Part shown: one piece after another, positions 21,100 through 44,885 of the stretch
Layout of the letters: each line of letters begins with the position of its first letter
Numbering within the stretch: the stretch's first letter is position 1
Origin: Thermococcus sp. JdFR-02
Lineage (GTDB): Archaea > Methanobacteriota_B > Thermococci > Thermococcales > Thermococcaceae
Length of the DNA: 64,000 nt
Assembly: GCA_002009975.1 (NCBI GenBank)
Contig: MTLP01000022.1
Coordinates: forward strand, 1 to 64,000
Direction: 5' to 3'
Position numbers and translations under genes: made by a program
The notes under the pieces: model-generated
What the model was told of the DNA's origin: nothing
What the model saw: only the letters and a program-made list of their open reading frames with translations
Databases searched by the model: none

Positions 21100-21399
21100 C
21101 TATCGGCAGTTATGCGGTGGTAGTCTAGCCTGGCCTAGGACAGCGGCCTGCCACGCCGCGGGCCCGGGTTCAAATCCCGGCCACCGCACCACCACTAATT
21201 TTTCAAGCCTTGAGAGAGCATCTTCTTGCGAAACTATTCCTGCAAGAACCATATTAACCACCCGCGAGAGATTATAACCTCTGCGCCTAACTTCCGCGAC
21301 CAAATCCTCATAAAGGTACAAATGAACACGTTTCTTTCGCCTTGTTTCAGCTTTAACTCCCGAATGAGAGCCGCTATTTTTATGCCCACGTTTGCCCAT
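21100..21399 (-). CDS. Integrase N-terminal fragment int(N)
   Basis: Shares VVRWPGFEPGPAAWQ (att read antisense) with int(C); RHH-like KKRVHLYLYEDLVAEVRRRGYNLSRVVN. Confidence 0.88.
   Translation of the reverse strand: MGKRGHKNSGSHSGVKAETRRKKRVHLYLYEDLVAEVRRRGYNLSRVVNMVLAGIVSQEDALSRLEKLVVVRWPGFEPGPAAWQAAVLGQARLPPHNCR
21114..21191 (+). tRNA. tRNA-Gly(GCC), provirus integration target
   Basis: GCGGTGG...CCACCGCACCA, anticodon arm GCGGC-CT-GCC-AC-GCCGC. Confidence 0.97.
21147..21192 (+). repeat. attL, 46 bp (tRNA-Gly 3' half from the anticodon arm)
   Basis: CCTGCCACGCCGCGGGCCCGGGTTCAAATCCCGGCCACCGCACCAC identical to 44840-44885. Confidence 0.97.
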
Positions 21400-21455
21400 T
21401 TTGACCCACTACTATTCCTGTCTATATTATAATATATGAACATTTGGAGTTCACC

Positions 21456-21776
21456 TCATGCTTTAAGCCATTCCCAATAGATCCTACCTAGTTTTATTGT
21501 CCTGGAACCAAAGGCTTTAGAAAAAGCGATGTAATCTTTCCCGTTTATGATAACCCTCTCAAGGATTCCGAGCTCTTCGAGGCGTTTGATCATGTTGTAA
21601 ACCTGTCTGTCTGAAATGTTGCTTACTTCCGCGACTTCTTGAACAAATCTTTTTAAGTTTCCAAGGAAGAGTTTACCGTTGTGCTCTATTTTTAACTTCT
21701 CGAGCAAGTTTTCATACGCCAGCTTGTTGCCTTTTATCATTCCATACTCAAATGCTTTATCTAACCATGAAGTCAT
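21456..21776 (-). CDS. Viral winged-helix DNA-binding protein
   Basis: ISDRQVYNMIKRLEELGILERV wHTH; GGGTGA RBS. Confidence 0.75.
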   Translation of the reverse strand: MTSWLDKAFEYGMIKGNKLAYENLLEKLKIEHNGKLFLGNLKRFVQEVAEVSNISDRQVYNMIKRLEELGILERVIINGKDYIAFSKAFGSRTIKLGRIYWEWLKA

Positions 21777-24235: not shown

Positions 24236-27025
24236 TCACCTCCTTAAAGTTGGAATAAAAACATCCGCGCGAATCTCCATTATTTCACCCTCTTTTTTCA
24301 AAATCTCCAAAATTTTATCTAAATCTCTCCTTGTAAGACCCTCTTGCCTCACTTTCTCAAGAACATGCTCATATGTTGCTTCACCTTTTTCTCTGTAAAG
24401 CCTAACAATTACATCCTTCACAATCTCATCATACTGAGCAACCTTCGAAGAAACACCCGCAACTAGATAATTCACATCAGGTAGTCCAGTTTCAGGATCA
24501 CGGAGCGTTGTATTGTACATAAACTCCATAAGCATAATTGCAACTCTTGCATCTTCAACTGTAACAACGTCACTTAATCTCATTCTTGCAGCAGCTTGAG
24601 CTAATCTGATCAAAGCCTCAGCTTGCCTTGCCGTTGCCGTTGTTATATCTTGAACACGCATGCCTTCAGCTTCATTTCGCAAAACCTTCTTGAACAAGTT
24701 CCTAAGATTGAGATATGCCTTCTCAAGCTCTTTTTCAGCCTCTTTTGAGAGTCTCGGAAAAACATGCTTTCTAGCATATGCAACATATTTCCGCAAAAGC
24801 TCTGGAGAAATTTTAGGCTTAACAACCTCAGTATCACCACTCCTAATCTTTGCAATATGTCTAAAAATCTCACGATCTTTCTTGTCATCAGGATCATCTA
24901 AAATCGTGAAGATTAAATCAAACCTGCTAAGGATCGTTGGAGGAAGTTTTATCTGCTCAACAATTGGTTTATAGCGGTTGAATCTTCCATGCTTTGGATT
25001 AGCTGCAGCAATAACTGTAGTTCTTGTGTTTATGATAGTCGTGATTCCCCCTTTACTGATACCCACCCTTTGCTGTTCCATTGCCTCATGGATCTTGTTC
25101 CTATCCTCTTCACTCATCTTATCCAGCTCATCTAAGAACGCGAAGCCTCCATCAGCAATTGTCAAAACACCAGCTTCAATAATCCAACCACCAGAAACAT
25201 CATCTCTGACTGCAACTGCAATCAGGCTCTTACCGGTTGAGTTTGGAGCGCTGGTGTAAATGCTTCTCGGGGCTTTACTAGCTGCTTGCGCGAGTATTGT
25301 AGATTTAGCAGTTCCCGGATCGCCAACAAGAAGAATATGAATATCTCCCCTAAGCCAAGTTCCATCAGGCAACTCTACTGGAACTCCTCCAAACAAAGCT
25401 AAAGCGAGACCAAGCTTAACTTCCTTCATACCCTTCGTCGCAGGAGCTATAGAATCAATAATATCGTCAATAAGTGTTGGACTCTGAGCAAGCTTTTTAA
25501 TTTTCATTTCATCCTCCGGAGTGATTTCAATATCTTCAAAAGAGGCAAACTCAGAGATAATGTTATTCACAATCAAAGCTTTTTCCTTGATTGGAAGCTT
25601 TGTAGCCTTTGAAGAATCAGCCCTAAGTCTGAGAATACCTACAAGGGTAATCCTATCTCCAGGTCTCACTTTATCAACCAAATCACCAAGAACAATGGCA
25701 TCAACGTGCCTTGGCAATTCACCACCAGACAGTTGTTCAGGTTTATCTTGGATCCTGATCCTCTGAGCATTCACAAACTCGCTCTTATCCTCATCTAAAA
25801 CCATATCCTTACTTCCACAATCGGTGCACCTAGATGGCTTTACCATAAAAGTAAAAGGCTTTTGAATGCGAATCATTTCATGACCACATTGCTTGCAGAC
25901 AAAGACTGCTTTCCTTACAAATGGCTGAATCGCTGATATTCTTGAAACAACGCCCTCCACTTGGATAAAACGATTGATATGATTAGAACCAATTTGTCTT
26001 GGCATTAAAGTCTCTGGTAGATTGTAAAAGCGGACTTGAATATCAAGAACTTCTCTTGAATCCTCTGGAATACCCAACTCATCTTGAATCTCCTCTATGG
26101 CTACTCTCAAGCCATCCTGAGCTGCAAGTAATGCCTCCTCAGGATCCTTAAGAACAGCCCTAGCGGTATTTGGACATGCAGCATTCAAATGCTTCCAATC
26201 AACATCAATAGCCTTAATAGGCAAAGTAGTCAAAGCCTCAATAATCTTATCACGATAAATCAGCTTATCTTTTCCATCAAAACGGACAGAATAACTCTTA
26301 AAGAAATCTGCAAAAGCCCTAATCATCTCTTCCCTTTCCCTACCATCAGCTAAAGCCTTTGCTTCTTTGAGCTGCTCCCTTTGAAGCAAAACCATCAACT
26401 GCTCATCAATATCCCTACGAACATCATCAAGAAGCCTATAGTACAGTGTTTTTCTAATCTCAGTTGGTTGAACAATGTCAGTATTATTAAGAACTCTTGA
26501 AATAGCCTGAGATAGTGTAGTAGATGTATATCTATTACCCAAGGATTGATTGATCTTTTTGGTTTTATCTTCTATTGTCTCTCTATCATAGAATTTCTCT
26601 TTACCATCTTCATGTGAAGGAAGAGTATAAAGAGCTAAAATTGGTATAGCTTCATTTGGTCTTCTTAGGTCAATTGCCTTTTTTACAGCTTCAATTAATA
26701 TCTCAAAGTCTTTTGCATTGTTTTGCATTTGGATTTGCAGTTTTGCATTGTTTTGCATTTGGGATGCAAAATGTGAGAAGTCTTTATTTTGAATTTGCAT
26801 GTCTTGCAAAGTTGGAAAATTATCTTTTTGCACAATTTCTTTATTGTTTACAATATTCTCTAGTTCTTGAACTGTGATGAAGTCTTTTTCAGAATAGCCA
26901 AATTTGAGCATTAGGTAATGTCTCAGTGCAAGATCCTGGATCTTCTTAACCTGCACTCTCTGAATCCCCATGTCTTTTAAGAACTGTAAGTACTCTTTTC
27001 CAATTTCAGCACTCATAAAAATCAC
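24236..27025 (-). CDS. mcm: Viral MCM replicative helicase with ~230-aa N-terminal extension
   Basis: CKQC..CTDC zinc finger, GDPGTAKS, LDELDKM, AAANP, SRFD, C-terminal wHTH. Confidence 0.95.
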   Translation of the reverse strand: MIFMSAEIGKEYLQFLKDMGIQRVQVKKIQDLALRHYLMLKFGYSEKDFITVQELENIVNNKEIVQKDNFPTLQDMQIQNKDFSHFASQMQNNAKLQIQMQNNAKDFEILIEAVKKAIDLRRPNEAIPILALYTLPSHEDGKEKFYDRETIEDKTKKINQSLGNRYTSTTLSQAISRVLNNTDIVQPTEIRKTLYYRLLDDVRRDIDEQLMVLLQREQLKEAKALADGREREEMIRAFADFFKSYSVRFDGKDKLIYRDKIIEALTTLPIKAIDVDWKHLNAACPNTARAVLKDPEEALLAAQDGLRVAIEEIQDELGIPEDSREVLDIQVRFYNLPETLMPRQIGSNHINRFIQVEGVVSRISAIQPFVRKAVFVCKQCGHEMIRIQKPFTFMVKPSRCTDCGSKDMVLDEDKSEFVNAQRIRIQDKPEQLSGGELPRHVDAIVLGDLVDKVRPGDRITLVGILRLRADSSKATKLPIKEKALIVNNIISEFASFEDIEITPEDEMKIKKLAQSPTLIDDIIDSIAPATKGMKEVKLGLALALFGGVPVELPDGTWLRGDIHILLVGDPGTAKSTILAQAASKAPRSIYTSAPNSTGKSLIAVAVRDDVSGGWIIEAGVLTIADGGFAFLDELDKMSEEDRNKIHEAMEQQRVGISKGGITTIINTRTTVIAAANPKHGRFNRYKPIVEQIKLPPTILSRFDLIFTILDDPDDKKDREIFRHIAKIRSGDTEVVKPKISPELLRKYVAYARKHVFPRLSKEAEKELEKAYLNLRNLFKKVLRNEAEGMRVQDITTATARQAEALIRLAQAAARMRLSDVVTVEDARVAIMLMEFMYNTTLRDPETGLPDVNYLVAGVSSKVAQYDEIVKDVIVRLYREKGEATYEHVLEKVRQEGLTRRDLDKILEILKKEGEIMEIRADVFIPTLRR
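26699..26881 (-). repeat. Iteron-like TGCAAA array inside mcm (putative origin)
   Basis: TTTTGCATTG/TTTTGCATTT at ~10-bp period 26711-26760 plus further TGCA palindromes; encodes QMQNNAK twice. Confidence 0.7.
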
Positions 27026-27333
27026 CGAGAAGAGTGATAGTCAAGAATTTCCACTTGTACAATATCCCCAAAATTTATCCCTAGCTTTTCTCTAATATCT
27101 TTAGGGATAACTATTAGTCCTCTGTCCTCTAAACGTTCAGAAATGGTGGCATATTTTCCAACTACTGGTTTCTTTTTAACAATCTTTGTAATTTTTGCCA
27201 CTCTACATTTTATGTAATCTCCCCTAGTTAGATTAAGAAGTTCTCTAGTGCTCTTTGGAATTACTATTCTGCCACCTTTTACAACTCTTGTGTGATATTT
27301 TACGATTGGAGTTCTATCCTCCATTGCTATCAC
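27022..27333 (-). CDS. AbrB/MazE/SpoVT-type DNA-binding protein (two swapped hairpins)
   Basis: GGRIVIPKSTRELLNL..GD and RGLIVIPKDIREKLGI..GD. Confidence 0.9.
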   Translation of the reverse strand: MIAMEDRTPIVKYHTRVVKGGRIVIPKSTRELLNLTRGDYIKCRVAKITKIVKKKPVVGKYATISERLEDRGLIVIPKDIREKLGINFGDIVQVEILDYHSSR

Positions 27334-27349
27334 CCGAATAATTCCTATT

Positions 27350-27457
27350 ATGTGATTAAATCACATTATTTAAATACTTTTCGGTTAGTGAAAATTACAC
27401 ATATCAAAAATCATAAATAATATGCGTGAGAATTTCATAATATCATGATAAAATCAC
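27350..27457. promoter_or_regulatory. Divergent promoter region with RTGA-N5-TCAY operators
   Basis: Palindrome ATGTGATT-A-AATCACAT 27350-27366; related sites at 27388, 27426, 27445; minus-strand BRE/TATA CGAAAAGTATTTAAATA. Confidence 0.7.
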
Positions 27458-27473
27458 AAATGGAGGGAGGATA

Positions 27474-27818
27474 ATGAGCGAATCTCAGGAATCTATTATT
27501 CGATATCATGCAAAAGTCACTAGTGGAGGTAGGATTATTATTCCTGATATAACCCGAAGGATATTGGGAATAAAGAAGGGTAACATTGTAAAACTAAAAG
27601 TTTCTAAGGTAGATAGTGTTAAAGAAAAAGAAAAGCGCGTGATAATAAGAACGGGTCCAGAAGTAATTTTTGAAGCAAAAGTTGGAAGTAGAGGCTTGAT
27701 TACTATTCCCGACAAAGCAAGAGAACTTCTTAAAATTTCAGATGGAGATTATGTAGAAGTGGAACTTCTAGACTATAAACCTGCCACTTTGGGACTTATA
27801 GAATTCCTCCGGACTTGA
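27474..27818 (+). CDS. AbrB/MazE/SpoVT-type DNA-binding protein, divergent paralog
   Basis: GGRIIIPDITRRILGIKKG and RGLITIPDKARELLKI..GD. Confidence 0.9.
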   Translation: MSESQESIIRYHAKVTSGGRIIIPDITRRILGIKKGNIVKLKVSKVDSVKEKEKRVIIRTGPEVIFEAKVGSRGLITIPDKARELLKISDGDYVEVELLDYKPATLGLIEFLRT

Positions 27819-27938
27819 ACAAAGAAGTTAATAAGTAAAGCTCTACTTAGGAAAAAATCAAAACCTTAAATAATTCTTCTCTTCAATGTGAAAAAGTTTA
27901 TATTTTGAGATGTTGTTTATTTTGTTTGGTGAATGTAA

Positions 27939-28226
27939 GTGCCGGAGTGTCCTTATTGTGGTAAGTGGTTTAAGACTAAGAGAGGTCTTGAACAGCATAT
28001 TACTAAGGTCCACAAGATTGATACTCCTTTTGGCAAGGCTTTGAATCCGGCATCGTTTGATTTTATGGGTAAGCTTAAGAGAGAGGAAGAGCGTGCTAAA
28101 AGGCGCCAGCAGAGGAAGAAATCTTCTGGTGGATTTGGTTTGGGATTTGGAGATCTTTTTGGATCATCGTCTGGTTCTAAAAAGAAGTCTAAGAAGAAAA
28201 AGAAGGGTCCGTTTGATTTCTTCTGA
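27939..28226 (+). CDS. C2H2 zinc-finger protein with basic tail (cargo)
   Basis: CPYCGKWFKTKRGLEQHITKVH. Confidence 0.8.
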   Translation: MPECPYCGKWFKTKRGLEQHITKVHKIDTPFGKALNPASFDFMGKLKREEERAKRRQQRKKSSGGFGLGFGDLFGSSSGSKKKSKKKKKGPFDFF

Positions 28227-28255
28227 TTGATTTTTGTATTGTTTGGTGATGTGAT

Positions 28256-29125
28256 ATGGGATTGAAGGATTTTCTTAAGAAAGCGGGAGAAGTCACGAAG
28301 AAGGCTGTGGATAGGGCAGCAAAGGAAGTGAAATGGCGTAGGAAAGTTGGTGAGGCAAAGAGGGAGATTCTCTCAAGGTTCACGGTCAAGCAGCTGGAGA
28401 GGATTGCTAATTCTAAAAGAATATCCCTTTATCGACAGGATCCATTTACGGGAGAGCGTGAACGTCTCCGCTCTAAGGGAGCAATTGTTGATAAGATTGC
28501 TTCTAATCTGAGCTTTCAGCAAGTTGTTGACTTGGCCAGGAGGTACAAGGTGAGATATTCCGACGTTGTTCAAGATCTTGAGAAGTTTAGGCAAGAGTTG
28601 TTTGAGGAAAAGCAGAGAAAGAGAGGGGAAGAGGAAATTCTGAGGGATATTTATGAAGTTGATGAGTTTGAAGAGGAATTTAGGAATGAATCTTCTAAAG
28701 TACTTGAGATGATAACTGAATTCGAACCAATGGGTATAGTGAGAGATGAAAAAGAGTTGAGAAATCAATTAGCTTCATGGCTTTCAGCCAAGCTTGGTAA
28801 GAGAGTTGTCAAGCTTGAATATCCATTTGAACACGGAAAAGTTGACATCCTTATTAAAGATGAGATAGCTATTGAAGTCAAAGTAGCAGACGGAAAACAA
28901 AAGTTGAAAAACCTTGTTGGGGAAGTTACAACTGACAAAATGTATTTCAGTAGTGTTATTGCAGTTATTTTTGATATTGGAAAGGATGTAGGGCTTGATT
29001 TCTTTGTTAATCAGTTGAAAGCCTTGGGTGCAATTACTGTTGTGATTCCTGCCCAAGTAAAGAAGAGTGGTCGTAGGCAGGAGATAGTTATTCGTCAGGG
29101 TCGGAGGAAGATAATTATTAGGTAG
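28256..29125 (+). CDS. Cargo protein with C-terminal PD-(D/E)XK nuclease domain
   Basis: EKELRNQL...EYPFEHGKVDILIKDEIAIEVK. Confidence 0.75.
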   Translation: MGLKDFLKKAGEVTKKAVDRAAKEVKWRRKVGEAKREILSRFTVKQLERIANSKRISLYRQDPFTGERERLRSKGAIVDKIASNLSFQQVVDLARRYKVRYSDVVQDLEKFRQELFEEKQRKRGEEEILRDIYEVDEFEEEFRNESSKVLEMITEFEPMGIVRDEKELRNQLASWLSAKLGKRVVKLEYPFEHGKVDILIKDEIAIEVKVADGKQKLKNLVGEVTTDKMYFSSVIAVIFDIGKDVGLDFFVNQLKALGAITVVIPAQVKKSGRRQEIVIRQGRRKIIIR

Positions 29126-29172
29126 TTTGGCAGGATACTCTGACAATCTTTTAGATAGTAGGTTGCCATGGG

Positions 29173-29943
29173 GTGATTAAAATGGATGCTAAACAAAGTT
29201 CCGAAAAGGATAAAAACTTTGAAAATTGGCTCGCTCTTCTCGTTAGATTCTACTTCATTGCAATAATATTCGGATTTTTAACAACAGTGTATGGCATTAT
29301 CTCTGGAAATGTATGGGAAAAACTCGGGAATTTGATGATCATGACTACTAGCGTTGCTATTACTGTTATAATGGTGTATTTTATTGCTCTCCAGACAAAA
29401 GCTACTAGAGAAATGGCTGAAAAAACTTCAGCCCAAGTTCAACTAACTCATGATATGGTAAAACAAATGGTTCAAGAAACGGCCATCATGAATGAAACTC
29501 TTATTGAAATGAAAAAACAACGCCTGAATATTGAAGAATACAAAAACTATCTCATTGAATATCTTAGGTACCTTGTCTTAAGATTGGAAGGAAATGCAAC
29601 TAGTGGCTATCAAAACGTTGAAGAGCCCTACTTGTTTATTTCGAAGAGATACAAGGATAGGATTGGCACGTCTTCTCTTTCTCCTGCAGAAGAGGGTTTC
29701 ATACGGAGAGTTTCGAGATTCATCGAGAAGTTCCTTAAGGCGCATGGTTTAGAACCTCAGGAAATAAGGAAATACAATAATTTAATCTCTGATTACAGTA
29801 GAGGCAATAGCCAACTTTTAAAAACTATTCGGGAGAGACCTAAGGAACTTCTGGAAATTACAAAACCTATTTTTCAGATGGTCGAGGAGATGAGTGATAA
29901 AGAATTAGAAGAGGAGATTTTGAGGACCTTGGGATTTTCTTAA
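29173..29943 (+). CDS. Cargo 2-TM membrane protein (FIALQTxATR family)
   Basis: Two N-terminal TMs then coiled coil; motif shared with 32020-32865. Confidence 0.75.
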   Translation: MIKMDAKQSSEKDKNFENWLALLVRFYFIAIIFGFLTTVYGIISGNVWEKLGNLMIMTTSVAITVIMVYFIALQTKATREMAEKTSAQVQLTHDMVKQMVQETAIMNETLIEMKKQRLNIEEYKNYLIEYLRYLVLRLEGNATSGYQNVEEPYLFISKRYKDRIGTSSLSPAEEGFIRRVSRFIEKFLKAHGLEPQEIRKYNNLISDYSRGNSQLLKTIRERPKELLEITKPIFQMVEEMSDKELEEEILRTLGFS

Positions 29944-29958
29944 TTAAAATGCCATGAG

Positions 29959-30429
29959 GTGGTGTTGGTGGACAATATGGTTTGGATAACTTTTTTTCTC
30001 ACACTTCTTTCCGGTGCCATTACAGCCCTAATAGGGGTTCATACCCAACATTGGTATTCTAAAAAGAAGACTCAAGAACGAATGATTAAAGCGTTAAGAG
30101 AAGAAATTCGAACAAATATTAAACGACTAGATTACAGTATTCAGTCTTTACAGAAAAAAGAAAAAACTGATAGAGAACTAACGCCTTATTTAACTGTTTG
30201 TTATGAGACATTCATAACTCAAGCTCCTGAATTATATTATGAATTATCATCAAGGACCAATTATCTTGTTGATGAAGCCTATGCAGATCTTCAAATGCTC
30301 AATAGGTTGTATACATTAGTAAATTTGGCAGTATCATTTACTGATGAGATTCCAGAACCTGAGATTAAGTTTTTGAAGGAAGTAAAGGAAAAATTAGAAA
30401 ATGTCTTAAGTGATTTGGAAAAATTGTAA
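29959..30429 (+). CDS. Cargo single-TM protein
   Basis: N-terminal TM then helical domain; stop codon lies inside the 91-bp mcm copy. Confidence 0.7.
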   Translation: MVLVDNMVWITFFLTLLSGAITALIGVHTQHWYSKKKTQERMIKALREEIRTNIKRLDYSIQSLQKKEKTDRELTPYLTVCYETFITQAPELYYELSSRTNYLVDEAYADLQMLNRLYTLVNLAVSFTDEIPEPEIKFLKEVKEKLENVLSDLEKL

Positions 30430-30513
30430 ACAATAAAGAAATTGTGCAAAAAGATAATTTTCCAACTTTGCAAGACATGCAAATTCAAAATAAAGACTTC
30501 TCACATTTTGCAT
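30423..30513 (+). repeat. Exact 91-bp inverted copy of mcm-internal 26764-26854
   Basis: ATTGTAAACAATAAAGAAATTGTGCAAAAAG...CTCACATTTTGCAT equals reverse complement of 26764-26854. Confidence 0.95.
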
Positions 30514-31424
30514 TATCCTCTTCTTTTTACTCTAACGATGGACTCTCCAAGATGGTTGTCAAAGATTTTAACAACTGGTGTTTGGTCAAATGTTAGTGTG
30601 ACAGTGTGATAGAGTGTCATTATTTTATCGTAGAAGTCTGAATCATTTTCCAAGTATTCTATTTTTAATCCTAGTTGTTGGGCTTTTTTGCGAGTTATAT
30701 GCCTGTCATGTACTTTTGTATCTTCATGGCTTGAGAGGTATTTTGCTATTTTTCGTGCTTTTTCAGCAGCATTTTGTTCTCCTTTAAACATGTATTTTTC
30801 GAGCCATTCTTGGACAAGTTCTTTTGCCAGTTCGGTTGCATATTCACATTCTATGAGTAAACCTGGTGGATATTGCCTTAATATTGGTATCCATGCGGCT
30901 ATTGCATTTGGGTTCTCTTCACATTCCTTCTTTGCTTTTTCAAATTGTTTTTGGATTGCTTCAGCTGATACCATCTGATGACCGTTTTCTGTTGGTATAA
31001 CAAACTGTGGATCTATTGGACCTAACGAGGAGTGTGATGCCATAACTATGACATCTGCTGCGGTTGCTATCATGGTTGCAGCGGACATTGCAGCTTGTGG
31101 GATTATGACACGTATGTGGTTGTATTTTTCTCTTAAGTAATCTACAAGGGCTTCAGCAACGGTTGGTGAACCACCAGGACTATGTAGGACTAAATCTAGT
31201 TCGTCTCCTTTTAGATTTCTTGTAATTTCGATGAATCCTTCTATGTCAATATCTGTTAGTGATACTAAGTGTGGAGGATTAGTTGGATCCATCCAAGCTG
31301 TTGCATAAAGAATAGTATCCCTACCAGTGTATTCGTAGATATCTTTTAAAAGATTCTGCCTGAAATGGTCATAAGGGTTAGGAAAATCTTCTATAGCGTT
31401 TAGAACGTCGTGCCAATTCACCAA
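30513..31424 (-). CDS. ClpP/S49-like serine protease (SDH_sah family), cargo
   Basis: LHSPGG, AMSAATMIA, SSLGPIDPQ, HDRHI. Confidence 0.85.
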   Translation of the reverse strand: MVNWHDVLNAIEDFPNPYDHFRQNLLKDIYEYTGRDTILYATAWMDPTNPPHLVSLTDIDIEGFIEITRNLKGDELDLVLHSPGGSPTVAEALVDYLREKYNHIRVIIPQAAMSAATMIATAADVIVMASHSSLGPIDPQFVIPTENGHQMVSAEAIQKQFEKAKKECEENPNAIAAWIPILRQYPPGLLIECEYATELAKELVQEWLEKYMFKGEQNAAEKARKIAKYLSSHEDTKVHDRHITRKKAQQLGLKIEYLENDSDFYDKIMTLYHTVTLTFDQTPVVKIFDNHLGESIVRVKRRG

Positions 31425-31437
31425 AAGGCTCCCACCT

Positions 31438-31626
31438 TCAAATTGATCTTGAACGTAGAATATAGTTTTTCTTTGCTTTATGTCTTGTTTTCCTACGTAA
31501 GTTTAGGTAGAAGTTATCTATTCTCTCAAGTCTTTCATAGAGTGTTATAGTGTTATATAAGCGTGTATTATCTCTTGATCTTTTTATAAGTTCTTCAAAC
31601 TCAATCTGTATTTTTAATTCTGCCAA
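31438..31626 (-). CDS. Small basic protein upstream of the protease
   Basis: GGGTGA RBS and upstream AAAAAATTTTATAAA promoter; TTG start. Confidence 0.55.
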   Translation of the reverse strand: MAELKIQIEFEELIKRSRDNTRLYNTITLYERLERIDNFYLNLRRKTRHKAKKNYILRSRSI

Positions 31627-31744
31627 TCTTCTTCACCCAATAAAGAGTTAGTATCAATTTTATAAAATTTTTTCTACATGCTATATACTATAATAGTGGA
31701 TATTATATAACGAAAACTTCATCTTTTAGGGCAAAGAGATCTTG

Positions 31745-31923
31745 TTCATCACAATCCAAGAGCTTGAGGATATAATACATATAAAAATTTGGAAAAAATA
31801 ATTTTTCCAAGTATTTCCGCAACGGAAATAGAAAAAGAAGCAAGGGAATCTTTTCCAATTGAAATGGAAAACAATGGAAAAATGGAAATCCAATTGGAAA
31901 AGAATGGAAAAGAGTTTGAAATA
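31745..31923 (+). repeat. Non-coding variant of the mcm iteron region with TGGAAA repeats
   Basis: Homologous to reverse complement of 26699-26881; core 31862-31923 matches 52/62 nt ungapped by hand count; in-frame stops, no ORF. Confidence 0.85.
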
Positions 31924-32019
31924 TATATCATAACAATCAAAAGCTAAAACCCTATTTATAACTTAAAGCGCAGTTACTGTTATTAATTAAAGAAAACAAA
32001 AAAAGATTGGTGGGAGGAG

Positions 32020-32865
32020 ATGCACAGAGAGTATACTTATTTCCGTACATTAATACTCCTTCTGCTATTGATAGTTGTTCTTGCTGTGATTATAGGAGTT
32101 ATACTCAAGCAATATCCTACTGCCGGAATTTATCTAAGTGCAACAGGTACCATAACAACAATATTAATGATCATATTCATAGCACTTCAAACTGAGGCTA
32201 CTAGGAAATCTGTTGAGGAGATTAGAAAAGACAGGCTCATGCCCGTTATGAAAAAAGTAATTGGTGCTCTTGGCATAACTAAAAAATTAATTATAGAAAA
32301 TAAGAATAATCTTAATGAGGGAAACTATTCTATTTATTTAATATCTCCTACGGTATCTACTACGGCACCAACCAAAATATTGAAGGATACCCTTCTCACA
32401 ATGGGTGAGGATTATATTGCAACTGTTAAAGCAAATGATTTACTAAAAGAATACGGAGTGGATATAGATAATTATAATAGAGAGATTGTTAATTTGATGA
32501 GTATTCTTAGAGAAATAGAATCGGTATTGTTAAGCGATAAAATTCTTCAGATCAAGTTACTGAAAATCCTCAAGAAATGGGAATTAAAAACAAACATTAC
32601 GGCTCCAAAACTTGAGACAATAATTAATAATTTTAGCAAACATGACTTTAATAGGAAATGGACTAGTGGGACTCCATATGAAAAATATCTAGAGTTATGG
32701 AGAGAATTAAAAGATTTCTTTAACAAGTACTCTGAAGAGAATGAAGAATTGAGAAAACTTCTTAAAAAACGACAAAAATATGTTGGAAGAATAATGGAGC
32801 ATTCTGATGAACTCATTGAGAAAATAGGCAAGATAGTAGAGGATATAAGCCGTGATGTCTTGTAA
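32020..32865 (+). CDS. Cargo 2-TM membrane protein (FIALQTxATR family)
   Basis: Two N-terminal TMs, FIALQTEATR; GGGAGGAG RBS; TATA at ~31953. Confidence 0.75.
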   Translation: MHREYTYFRTLILLLLLIVVLAVIIGVILKQYPTAGIYLSATGTITTILMIIFIALQTEATRKSVEEIRKDRLMPVMKKVIGALGITKKLIIENKNNLNEGNYSIYLISPTVSTTAPTKILKDTLLTMGEDYIATVKANDLLKEYGVDIDNYNREIVNLMSILREIESVLLSDKILQIKLLKILKKWELKTNITAPKLETIINNFSKHDFNRKWTSGTPYEKYLELWRELKDFFNKYSEENEELRKLLKKRQKYVGRIMEHSDELIEKIGKIVEDISRDVL

Positions 32866-32936
32866 CAGATTATAATATCACCATTTTTCCCTTGTTTCAT
32901 CTTTGAATCTTCTTTTGGATCATAACATCACCTCCA

Positions 32937-43630: not shown

Positions 43631-44055
43631 TTTTTCACCTCCTTTGCAGGCTGGAAGCTTCGCCGTTCACGGCGAGGAGGAAAGCTCGTAAAGTTTATCT
43701 TCAGGAGATCCCATCCCAACGAGATCATGCCAACGAGGATTGTTAATAGTCCTATACTAGTGAGTCCAAAACCAACTTTTTCATCCCAACTCATCGGTGG
43801 ACCCTCATCAGAAGCCCAACAACACGTAGGAAATTCCTTATCAGTGAAATTGTGGGCTTCTAAGTACCTATCGACTGCATACATGCAAGTGCCTCCACAA
43901 GCAACCCTTATTCCAAGCTCTTTTTCAGCCCATTCAATTGCCTTGTATGTATTTTGAACACAGAGAGGAGGTTCCGCATGCTCTAGGATAACCCACCCTA
44001 CTACGAATAACAAAATCCCTATGCCGAGGACTACGAGATCCTCTTTGTATGTCAT
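43627..44055 (-). CDS. 2-TM protein with Cys-rich loop
   Basis: Two TMs, five Cys in loop; ATGA-coupled to int(C). Confidence 0.75.
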   Translation of the reverse strand: MTYKEDLVVLGIGILLFVVGWVILEHAEPPLCVQNTYKAIEWAEKELGIRVACGGTCMYAVDRYLEAHNFTDKEFPTCCWASDEGPPMSWDEKVGFGLTSIGLLTILVGMISLGWDLLKINFTSFPPRRERRSFQPAKEVKK

Positions 44056-44885
44056 TCCTCCAACACCTCTTTTAGCTTATCAACAACGCGAGAATAAGCC
44101 GTATCGGCTTTTTTCATCAAATCGAGATAGTGCTTCTCAAGAACAGAGCGTGAAACTCTGCTATGAATAAAGTTCACAAGATATCCGTCAATATAATCAA
44201 TGAGAAAATTAGTGTGCCATTTCCTTATCGTTGAGGGATTAACGCGCCCATAGTGGAGCTTCTTGTTAATCGTATCGTACTTCACATTTACTTGGCTTAA
44301 CTCATGTACAAGCTCCGCTGGAAAGTATACGAAAAAGGCTGCTTTCGTGCCTTTTCTCCCCATGAGTGGATACTTCGCCGCTTTGCCAAAAACAATGACT
44401 TTTGAAGCATCGTAGTTTGTGAGCATGTCATGAACAGCTGAGAGCCTCGCTCCGCTATAAACAAGAAGCTTGAAGAAAAGCAAAGTATCTACATCTGCAT
44501 GCTTCTTGAAGTACTCATAAGCCTCTCTGAGCTCTTCAATTGAGATGTAGATTTCTCTTTTACCAGTTTGCTTGATTTTGATAATCTCTTTCAACTGCTC
44601 GTGCTCTTCCCTTGTAATCACGTTTATCTCTTTCAAGAAGTGTATGAAATTTCTAAGTGCCTTGCAGAGGTTACGCTTGTAGTTTTCCTTGATTAATGCT
44701 TTTTGCAAGTCTTCATAGCTGTGTACCTTGTACTTAGCAAAAAATCTCTCAAGTGCTCTTAAGTAGTCTTTCGCTGTCTTTGCGGCTACTTTTTGTGAGA
44801 GCCATTCGCCAAATTGCTCCTTATATTTATTCCACCACTCCTGCCACGCCGCGGGCCCGGGTTCAAATCCCGGCCACCGCACCAC
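44052..44885 (-). CDS. Integrase C-terminal fragment int(C), SSV/pTN3-type tyrosine recombinase
   Basis: SGAR, KGTK, TIRKW, FIHSR, KHY catalytic positions; begins inside attR. Confidence 0.92.
   Translation of the reverse strand: MVRWPGFEPGPAAWQEWWNKYKEQFGEWLSQKVAAKTAKDYLRALERFFAKYKVHSYEDLQKALIKENYKRNLCKALRNFIHFLKEINVITREEHEQLKEIIKIKQTGKREIYISIEELREAYEYFKKHADVDTLLFFKLLVYSGARLSAVHDMLTNYDASKVIVFGKAAKYPLMGRKGTKAAFFVYFPAELVHELSQVNVKYDTINKKLHYGRVNPSTIRKWHTNFLIDYIDGYLVNFIHSRVSRSVLEKHYLDLMKKADTAYSRVVDKLKEVLEE
44840..44885 (+). repeat. attR, 46 bp
   Basis: Identical to 21147-21192. Confidence 0.97.

Follow-up and report, generated by a model that had tools for sequence, protein, structure and literature searches.

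Extra iteron clusters such as incA of P1 control plasmid copy number and cause incompatibility. In the lambdoid phages, iteron types co-vary with initiator O's N-terminal domain, and the iterons of lambda itself are 19-bp inverted repeats bound by O dimers. In archaea, origin recognition boxes (ORB) and mini-ORBs are short repeated origin elements read by the winged helix of Orc1/Cdc6. In this study, we analysed a stretch of 64,000 nucleotides of Thermococcus sp. JdFR-02 (contig MTLP01000022.1, positions 1 to 64,000; hereafter the window). It holds an integrated virus with its own gene for the replicative helicase MCM, and the 5' part of this resident mcm gene carries an array of the hexamer TGCAAA. 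A second copy of the array lies at 31745-31925, outside any gene, with TGGAAA in place of TGCAAA. We refer to this second copy as the orphan. The concerted difference between the two copies is real, and we tentatively regard the orphan as a relic of the exchange of replication modules between related viruses.

The origin of lambda, ori lambda, with the binding repeats of the initiator, is located within gene O (PMC5043065). The arrays of this study resemble it in their place within the gene of the initiator, where they occupy a linker-coding part beside the DNA-binding domain, and the repeat differs between relatives. They differ from lambda in that the units are hexamers of mixed orientation, about ten to an array, and in that the initiator is the replicative helicase MCM with a winged-helix extension, in an archaeal host. 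Extra origin copies have been reported to stop a virus that uses the same origin (Valenzuela and Sharan 2015; Hayes et al. 2012; PMC4488673, PMC3349717). These ectopic ori lambda decoys were engineered and plasmid-borne, the effect in one of the studies needed oop transcription, and the accessible parts of the two papers describe no natural captured decoy. The orphan resembles incA in being an array of initiator repeats away from the origin and without a gene of its own. The incA clusters match the plasmid's own initiator, whereas the type of the orphan differs from that of the resident MCM. The cognate extra site in this provirus is another fragment, named copy3 below.

A 2026 preprint on Thermococcales viruses proposed that the N-terminal winged helix of their MCMs recognises the viral origins (PMC12934983). 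It reported that mcm modules are often exchanged between these viruses, and that neither Orc1/Cdc6 genes nor ORB sequences are present in them. The resident mcm belongs to this kind, and Thermococcus prieurii virus 1 (TPV1) has a gene order collinear with that of the provirus. In the main text of the preprint the word 'iteron' is absent, and section 22 and the discussion passages name no cis element. To its account we add the hexamer arrays with their type-specificity, and the orphan; supplementary figures 9-10 of the preprint may bear on them. The arrays differ from ORB in their repeat sequences and in lying inside the gene, and here the winged helix is part of the helicase protein itself. 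The main texts of the literature searched contained no description of hexamer arrays inside viral mcm genes or of orphan copies. Iteron-like sites inside an initiator gene were already known; what is new is their occurrence in the helicase-initiator fusion of archaeal viruses, together with a heterotypic orphan copy.

The orphan and the resident array

The features compared in this section are the following.

24236-27025, minus strand: resident mcm, 929 aa, with MCM_N, OB, P-loop and lid from residue 236 (domain match)
26712-26832, minus strand: resident array, nine TGCAAA/TTTGCA units and one TTTCCA (26813-26818) in the linker-coding part (hexamer count)
31745-31925, plus strand: orphan, a non-coding internal piece of a TGGAAA-type mcm, from its 5' part (blastn homology, unit count)
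31789-31947, plus strand: ghost frame within the orphan, mcm-like and open over 52 codons, LEKIIFPS...EMENNGKMEIQLEKNGKEFEIYIITIKS and then a stop; it contains LEKIIFPSISATEIEKEARESFPIEMENNGKMEIQLEKNGKEFEIYIITIKS (translation)

Positions 31700-31990 were used as a blastn query against the whole 2.36-Mb genome. The segment 31745-31924 matched 26881-26698 on the opposite strand with 69.0% identity over 184 columns and two gap openings (E 7.5e-21). The core 31862-31923 aligned with 26760-26699 without gaps at 52 of 62 nucleotides (nt), and five of the ten mismatches came from C>G changes at the centres of the five direct units. The homology to mcm begins 45 nt ahead of the first unit and stops 15 nt past the last one, at about 31925, and the orphan covers only nt 145-327 of mcm. 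The ghost peptide FITIQELEDII (31745-31777) lies in one frame and EMENNGKMEIQLEKNGKEFEI in another, inside the open frame 31789-31947. This means that one frameshift separates the two in the orphan, near 31775-31790. A start codon is lacking, and a stop lies five codons before FITIQELEDII. With no start, a broken frame and both ends cut, the orphan is an internal fragment of mcm, which fits an mcm pseudogene fragment.

An earlier reading of the letters of the window (the original prediction) had claimed that 31745-31923 is homologous to the mcm repeat region, that its ghost translations include FITIQELEDII and LEKIIFPSISATEIEKEARESFPIEMENNGKMEIQLEKNGKEFEIYIITIKS, and that the reading frame is broken while the repeat spacing is kept. 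All of this was recovered: the two peptides are there, in different frames, and the five direct units are equally spaced in both copies. By tblastx, the flanks of the orphan matched none of the mcm surroundings in the elements L211 and G068:C3 and in seven other elements. No mcm body adjoins the orphan, and its array is neither in nor beside the gene of an initiator that reads its type. Rfam gave no match at the orphan and one sub-threshold match inside mcm (30.7 bits, against a gathering score of 55).

The orphan contains eight exact TGGAAA/TTTCCA units, six on the plus strand (31790, 31865, 31875, 31883, 31895 and 31905) and two on the minus strand (31804 and 31852), as well as the palindrome TTTCCG(31814-31819)caaCGGAAA(31823-31828). 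Both arrays have the same layout, namely a direct unit, an inverted unit, a palindromic pair, an inverted unit and five direct units, and from start to start the five direct units are spaced by 10, 8, 12 and 10 nt in orphan and resident mcm alike. This close, roughly helical phasing is as expected of an iteron-type origin. The resident palindrome TTTGCAagacaTGCAAA reads TTTCCGcaaCGGAAA in the orphan, and the first resident unit TGCAAA reads TGGAAA. The sole unswitched unit is the TTTCCA kept in the resident mcm (TGGAAA on the plus strand, 26813-26818). The two copies differ at 10 of 11 unit centres, at 4 of 51 other unit positions and at 49 of 135 non-unit positions (Fisher p 5.5e-5). This indicates that the concerted difference between the units is not due to chance. 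The change from TGCAAA to TGGAAA, which had been described for every direct and inverted unit at equal spacing, is confirmed, and it extends to the palindrome and the first unit.

The two arrays are also singular in the whole genome. At least five TGGAAA/TTTCCA within 130 nt were found only in the orphan (eight copies), and at least five TGCAAA within 130 nt only at the 5' end of mcm (nine copies). At least six copies of any hexamer within 130 nt occurred at 12 genome loci, of which the densest three were the resident mcm array (C7), the orphan and the array of a further mobile-element mcm gene on C9. Dense clusters in both orientations were also seen outside the mobile-element mcm genes, with AACACC seven times at G000:C2:72660-72781 and ATTAAC seven times at G000:C4:81439-81556. 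Within the resident array, a stretch of 22 nt is repeated exactly at a distance of 30 nt. In the orphan, all ten unit cores are intact, and its two palindromes are more perfect than those of the coding copies. When folded as single-stranded DNA, the orphan reached -22.8 kcal/mol (z -5.45), and none of 200 shuffles was as good; the z value of the resident array was -2.23.

Hexamer arrays in mobile-element mcm genes

The 235-aa N-terminal extension of the resident MCM was used to search the genomes of the family (n = 97), and relatives were found in seven genomes, this one included. The element L211 was added from a metagenome scan, and gp01 of TPV1 was added once the provirus had proved to be TPV1-like. 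When these mobile-element mcm genes were read as DNA, 12 of 12 contained 5-9 copies of one hexamer, in both orientations and about 10 nt apart. In all 12, the array lies in the linker-coding stretch just before the conserved block ...AIxxxxxLxRPxDAxP..., ahead of the winged helix. The 12 genes are kin found by similarity, and their arrays count as one family trait, not as independent samples. Nine hexamer types occur among them, and close pairs have one type in common.

Resident mcm (C7): TGCAAA
C9 mcm of this genome, G000:C9:83583-86153 (L010 1393-3963): TGAAAA, seven copies
C19 mcm of this genome, G000:C19:33537-36344: ACGAAC, six copies
G068:C3 and L211 mcm: TGGAAA
G025:C1 and G040:C44 mcm: AGGAAA
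G056:C71 mcm: TATCCA
G001:C13 and G016:C21 mcm: GGGGAA
G016:C8 mcm: GGAACA
TPV1 gp01: TGGGAA

JdFR-02 has three mobile-element mcm genes with three different hexamers, and each array is the sole cluster of its hexamer in the genome. The C9 and C19 proteins are 40% and 30% identical to the C7 protein, respectively. The cellular mcm on C8 (G000:C8:97542-102605) is an open frame of 1699 codons that was matched in three pieces, and it probably contains inteins. In TPV1 (L217, NC_016899.1), 7-8 TGGGAA/TTCCCA units lie at 429-550 inside gp01, which is annotated as 'N-terminal part of the MCM2-like helicase'. Two open reading frames (ORFs), 262 nt apart, thus encode the extension (gp01) and the helicase (gp02) of this virus separately.

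Because the units are 8-12 nt apart and partly inverted, the hexamer is read in several frames (MQ, AK and LQ in the resident gene). When the three pairs of genes of like type were pooled, the unit cores differed at 3 of 131 positions and the other positions at 24 of 279 (p 0.017). Cores were likewise better conserved than the rest between the orphan and G068:C3 (figures below). Protein identity in the extension region is only 20-32% across the genes, and the array layout is nevertheless conserved. Since the units are inverted, stand in different frames and have cores that are conserved relative to the spacers, the constraint on the arrays appears to act on the DNA and not on the peptide. The G+C content of the array is 10-18 points below that of the gene body in six of eight genes, with two exceptions, and no discrete unwinding element was delimited.

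The N-terminal extension of the resident MCM has about 235 aa and comprises a small domain, a disordered linker and a winged helix. In an AlphaFold2 model built from an alignment of eight sequences, the mean predicted local distance difference test score (pLDDT) was 75.8, and the array-encoded residues 60-99 were below 50. Residues 100-196 of this model form a helix-turn-helix and a beta hairpin (pLDDT about 80-96). The Foldseek matches listed from the PDB were mostly winged-helix proteins, all at E 0.02 or worse, and included the Orc1/Cdc6-origin DNA structure 2qby_B at rank 28 (E 0.094). Position 5 of the recognition helix is Arg in the TGGAAA, AGGAAA and GGAACA types, Ser in the TGCAAA type and Ala in TPV1 (TGGGAA). 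A profile search with the extension among 1.84 billion representatives gave 20 proteins at E 0.001 or better, which offer linker peptides only and no DNA. In a word-based protein search the extension found only itself, and no relative was found in the plasmid and phage collections or among the viral contigs.

Other dense repeats were seen just downstream of mcm in three elements. At G016:C8:77460-78150, two blocks surrounding a small zinc-finger-like ORF contain GGTGAA about 25 times; G056:C71:2751-3121 has about 15 copies of GGGTGA/TCACCC, and G000:C9:86961-87071 has six of GGTTAA.

We also searched for further orphan arrays. Eight other elements, namely the one on C9 in this genome and seven from genomes of the family, had no cluster of their own hexamer outside mcm within about 15-20 kb of the gene (the G068:C3 contig being 3.7 kb long), and a hexamer-agnostic scan near these eight genes gave no second mcm-like array. 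The TPV1 genome contained no orphan array. With the orphan as a DNA query, array-length matches in the 96 other family genomes lay only inside mcm genes, and there was no match in phages or plasmids, where the low-complexity filter may hide one. Retention of orphan arrays in related elements, which the original prediction had left as a check, was thus not found in the eight elements, TPV1 and the 96 family genomes.

A loose TGGAAA spacing pattern matched 18 viral-contig and at least 120 genome-contig stretches. Among the 138 matches listed, only L170 is an mcm 5' end, with coordinates identical to those of the G068:C3 match; the remaining matches listed are 10-nt tandem repeats of bacteria and phages (blastn, tblastn). 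A tighter pattern matched no viral contig and 13 metagenome contigs, of which L211 is real and 12 are chance matches.

The provirus and its island

The integrated element spans approximately 21193-44839 and is bounded by an exact 46-bp direct repeat (21147-21192 and 44840-44885). By tblastx it is collinear with TPV1 except at 29126-32936. The N-terminal part of the integrase is represented by a match to the TPV1 integrase at 21253-21408. Collinear genes, a split integrase and the duplicated attachment site at a tRNA gene identify the provirus as a TPV1-like virus with integration of the SSV type. Its attachment sites, integrase and conserved block beside mcm are as follows.

21147-21192, plus strand: attL, 3' part of tRNA-Gly(GCC) (gene 21114-21191), 46-bp repeat of 44840-44885
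44052-44885, minus strand: SSV-type integrase, C-terminal part (Pfam Phage_integr_3, E 1.8e-40)
44840-44885, plus strand: attR, second 46-bp copy of the direct repeat, at the start of the integrase frame
27022-29125: block beside mcm, conserved with TPV1 gp28-gp26 (tblastx)
27022-27333, minus strand, and 27474-27818, plus strand: AbrB/SpoVT-like genes of this block
27939-28226, plus strand: zinc-finger ORF of this block
28256-29125, plus strand: nuclease gene of this block

Upstream of mcm there are two divergent AbrB/SpoVT-like genes where TPV1 has one (gp28), and the first of them overlaps the start of mcm by 4 nt. The ATPase homologue of TPV1 gp20 is 76% identical over 251 aa, with homologues of gp21-gp23 next to it. 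A lectin-domain protein of 678 aa is 51% identical to its TPV1 counterpart over residues 197-678. A structural protein of 642 aa had no match in phages, viral contigs or the family genomes.

The part that is not collinear with TPV1 is an island, and it contains the orphan and the following features.

29126-32936: lineage-specific 3.8-kb island without TPV1 counterpart (no tblastx match); gp24-gp25 stand there in TPV1
29173-29943: ORF, membrane protein
29959-30429: ORF
30420-30513, plus strand: copy3, a 94-nt mcm 5' fragment, inverted relative to mcm, with one mismatch (93 of 94 nt identical to 26857-26764)
30513-31424, minus strand: SDH-type protease gene (domain match)
31438-31626, minus strand: ORF
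32020-32865, plus strand: ORF, membrane protein, paralogue of ORF 29173-29943 (31% identity over residues 10-109)

Fragments of the mcm 5' part are present in the island twice, with left borders that differ by 24 nt in the coordinates of the gene. Copy3 corresponds to the left half of the array, with four TGCAAA units and without the five direct units, and exactly fills the gap between two convergent ORFs; it lies 1.3 kb from the orphan. Copy3 could mediate inversion of 26858-30419 or serve as a cognate secondary binding site. The ORF 29173-29943 is 98% identical (13 differences over 772 nt) to part of a 3403-nt contig from an RNA library of another sample, in which the flanks on either side are unlike. 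Such near-identity between unlike flanks points to recent recombination in the island at the level of cassettes, and this ORF is a mobile cassette. Homologues of ORF 32020-32865 were found in five genomes, with no array nearby.

Two independent metagenomic DNA runs of other studies (X2 and X3) gave contigs identical to most of the provirus. The region 31563-32691, which contains the orphan and most of ORF 32020-32865, was covered by no X2 contig and almost none from X3 (depth 0.7, bin 31672-32338), and it was bridged by no contig. This is a hole in coverage and not evidence of absence; it may reflect a polymorphic region or an assembly gap. The contigs of the RNA libraries matched only tRNA, short conserved bits and the cassette of ORF 29173-29943, from which transcription of the orphan cannot be inferred.

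Origin of the orphan and rival explanations

Outside the units, the orphan is as far from the resident mcm (80 of 125 positions identical, 0.64) as from the TGGAAA-type genes G068:C3 and L211 (72 of 113 and 73 of 114, both 0.64). Judged by these equal distances, the orphan derives from a third lineage and is not a recent in-place duplicate of the resident array that switched later. The core (T/A)GGAAA is common to the orphan, to G068:C3 and L211 and to G025:C1 and G040:C44, and one TTTCCA persists in the resident mcm. For this reason the resident TGCAAA type looks derived, and the G>C switch probably happened on the resident lineage and not in the orphan. Between the orphan and G068:C3, the unit cores differ at 1 of 50 positions and the remainder at 44 of 123 (p 6e-7); most of this path would have been travelled as a working gene. 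The single frameshift suggests that the orphan has spent only a short time as a pseudogene.

The original prediction had taken the orphan for the origin of a related virus with another initiator specificity. It is indeed the repeat region of a related mcm with another hexamer, but the switch had been placed on the orphan side, and the shared GGAAA core, with the TTTCCA kept in the resident mcm, makes the reverse direction more probable. The prediction had also called for an mcm gene with in-frame TGGAAA repeats. Such 5' ends do exist, in the family genome contig G068:C3 and in the metagenome contig L211, and the protein P0007 has the same linker peptide as this type. In the assembly of this genome (completeness 99.99%, 44 contigs) there is no TGGAAA-type mcm, although an unassembled plasmid would escape.

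We believe that the orphan is quite possibly a relic of replication-module exchange that carries a heterotypic array of initiator sites, and we favour this explanation tentatively. The arrays would be the binding sites of the MCM's own N-terminal winged helix and would act as an iteron-type origin or as an initiator operator. They would have been placed in a linker-coding part that tolerates almost any peptide, and the hexamer would define the specificity type of the replicon. The orphan would have landed by recombination while co-infecting relatives exchanged replication modules. It would be a young relic and not a selected device, and it could still bind a TGGAAA-type MCM entering the cell. 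Both extra mcm 5' fragments sit in the island 29126-32936, the sole non-collinear part of the provirus. One frameshift and an open ghost frame of 52 codons point to recent inactivation, and for this reason the intact units need no selection.

Several observations weigh against this explanation. Both borders of the orphan closely bracket the array. All ten unit cores are intact, the palindromes are sharper than in the coding copies, and the fold has a z value of -5.45. A second fragment, with its left border only 24 nt away, became fixed at a distance of 1.3 kb. The orphan is flanked by ORFs 31438-31626 (minus) and 32020-32865 (plus), which are divergently oriented, and a protein-binding array could matter between them. 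The in-gene arrays could be operators or loading sites instead of origins. The GGGTGA/GGTGAA arrays just downstream of mcm in G056:C71 and G016:C8 are far denser and resemble classical repeat-rich origins more. Like the GGTTAA repeats on C9, they are perhaps the true origins of their elements, or else code for repeat proteins. The putative origins of pT26-2-family plasmids are reported to be mostly intergenic, near the Rep gene and without consensus (PMC6972569). A simple recognition code in which Arg reads GGAA was rejected, since TPV1 (TGGGAA) has Ala, and there is no clean code between helix and hexamer.

The original prediction went further and regarded the orphan as a captured decoy or silencer, which the computation did not support. 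As a decoy or incompatibility determinant, the orphan would be kept to titrate or handcuff the MCM of incoming TGGAAA-type viruses or plasmids and thereby to reduce their replication, in the manner of incA of P1 and of ectopic ori lambda. A TGGAAA-type mcm does exist in another family genome and a metagenome, which does not imply that it occurs together with this host. The array has all its parts and equals or surpasses the coding arrays, the three mcm hexamers in this genome are all different, as expected if a common specificity is not tolerated, and plasmid-borne ectopic copies of ori lambda block lambda replication (PMC4488673, PMC3349717). The orphan, however, is a single integrated copy with about ten hexamers, unlike the plasmid-borne lambda copies, and it has no parallel in the eight other elements, TPV1 or the 96 family genomes searched by DNA. 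It also sits in a mosaic island, and it has decayed so little anyway that no signal of selection can be read from it. For a variant in which its RNA silences a competitor, the known TGGAAA-type genes are only 64% identical outside the units, so none of the known targets is close enough to pair. Retention as a decoy therefore seems unlikely to us. We are similarly sceptical of the wider claim, in which the array inside mcm is an origin that sets the incompatibility type and the orphan is a captured heterotypic origin kept to exclude or exploit TGGAAA-type relatives.

The complete array, its AT-rich flanks and its strong palindromes would also suit an additional origin of a heterotypic kind, from which a co-resident TGGAAA-type MCM could replicate the excised element in trans, or which was left as a spare after module exchange. 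Module exchange is reported to be frequent (PMC12934983), which makes a transient state with two origins plausible. This genome nevertheless has no cognate initiator, no parallel case turned up in the eight other elements or TPV1, and the element has its own intact mcm and array, so we consider a second origin used in trans very unlikely. No more probable is an operator between the divergent ORFs, read by a relaxed resident MCM or by another regulator, with copy3 as a looping site. The position between ORFs 31438-31626 and 32020-32865 would fit an operator, copy3 has four resident-type units and is 99% identical to the gene, and two AbrB-like regulators adjoin mcm. Every orphan unit, however, differs from the resident type at the central base, and no relationship to the MCM extension was seen for ORF 21456-21776 (hhalign probability 0.9%), the sole other winged-helix ORF of the element that was compared. 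Finally, the arrays might have no function as DNA at all and be slippage by-products in the coding sequence of a disordered linker, which would leave the orphan as pseudogene scrap. The predicted disorder of the array-encoded residues agrees with this, and the 22-nt duplication in the resident array demonstrates tandem duplication and lowers the number of independent concerted changes. But slippage yields direct tandem copies, not inverted units and palindromes in a layout conserved at 20-32% identity. The conservation of the cores against the spacers, the use of different reading frames and the G+C drop of 10-18 points in six of eight genes also speak against it, and we doubt that the arrays are without function.

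If the orphan is only a scar of replication-module exchange, as we favour, it would be a dated trace of an exchange that has been inferred from phylogenies. The arrays offer a concrete candidate DNA target for the proposed origin recognition by the winged helix, and they are present in the cultured virus TPV1. The natural variants TGCAAA, TGGAAA and TGAAAA differ by one base and make origin recognition by a helicase-initiator directly testable. The arrays may also yield replicon parts for the genetics of hyperthermophiles. If the captured-origin reading were true, archaeal viruses would have their first natural origin decoy in the orphan. Should the hexamer set compatibility, the coexistence of three MCM-encoding elements in a single genome would be explained, and orphan arrays would gain a possible role in virus-virus conflict.

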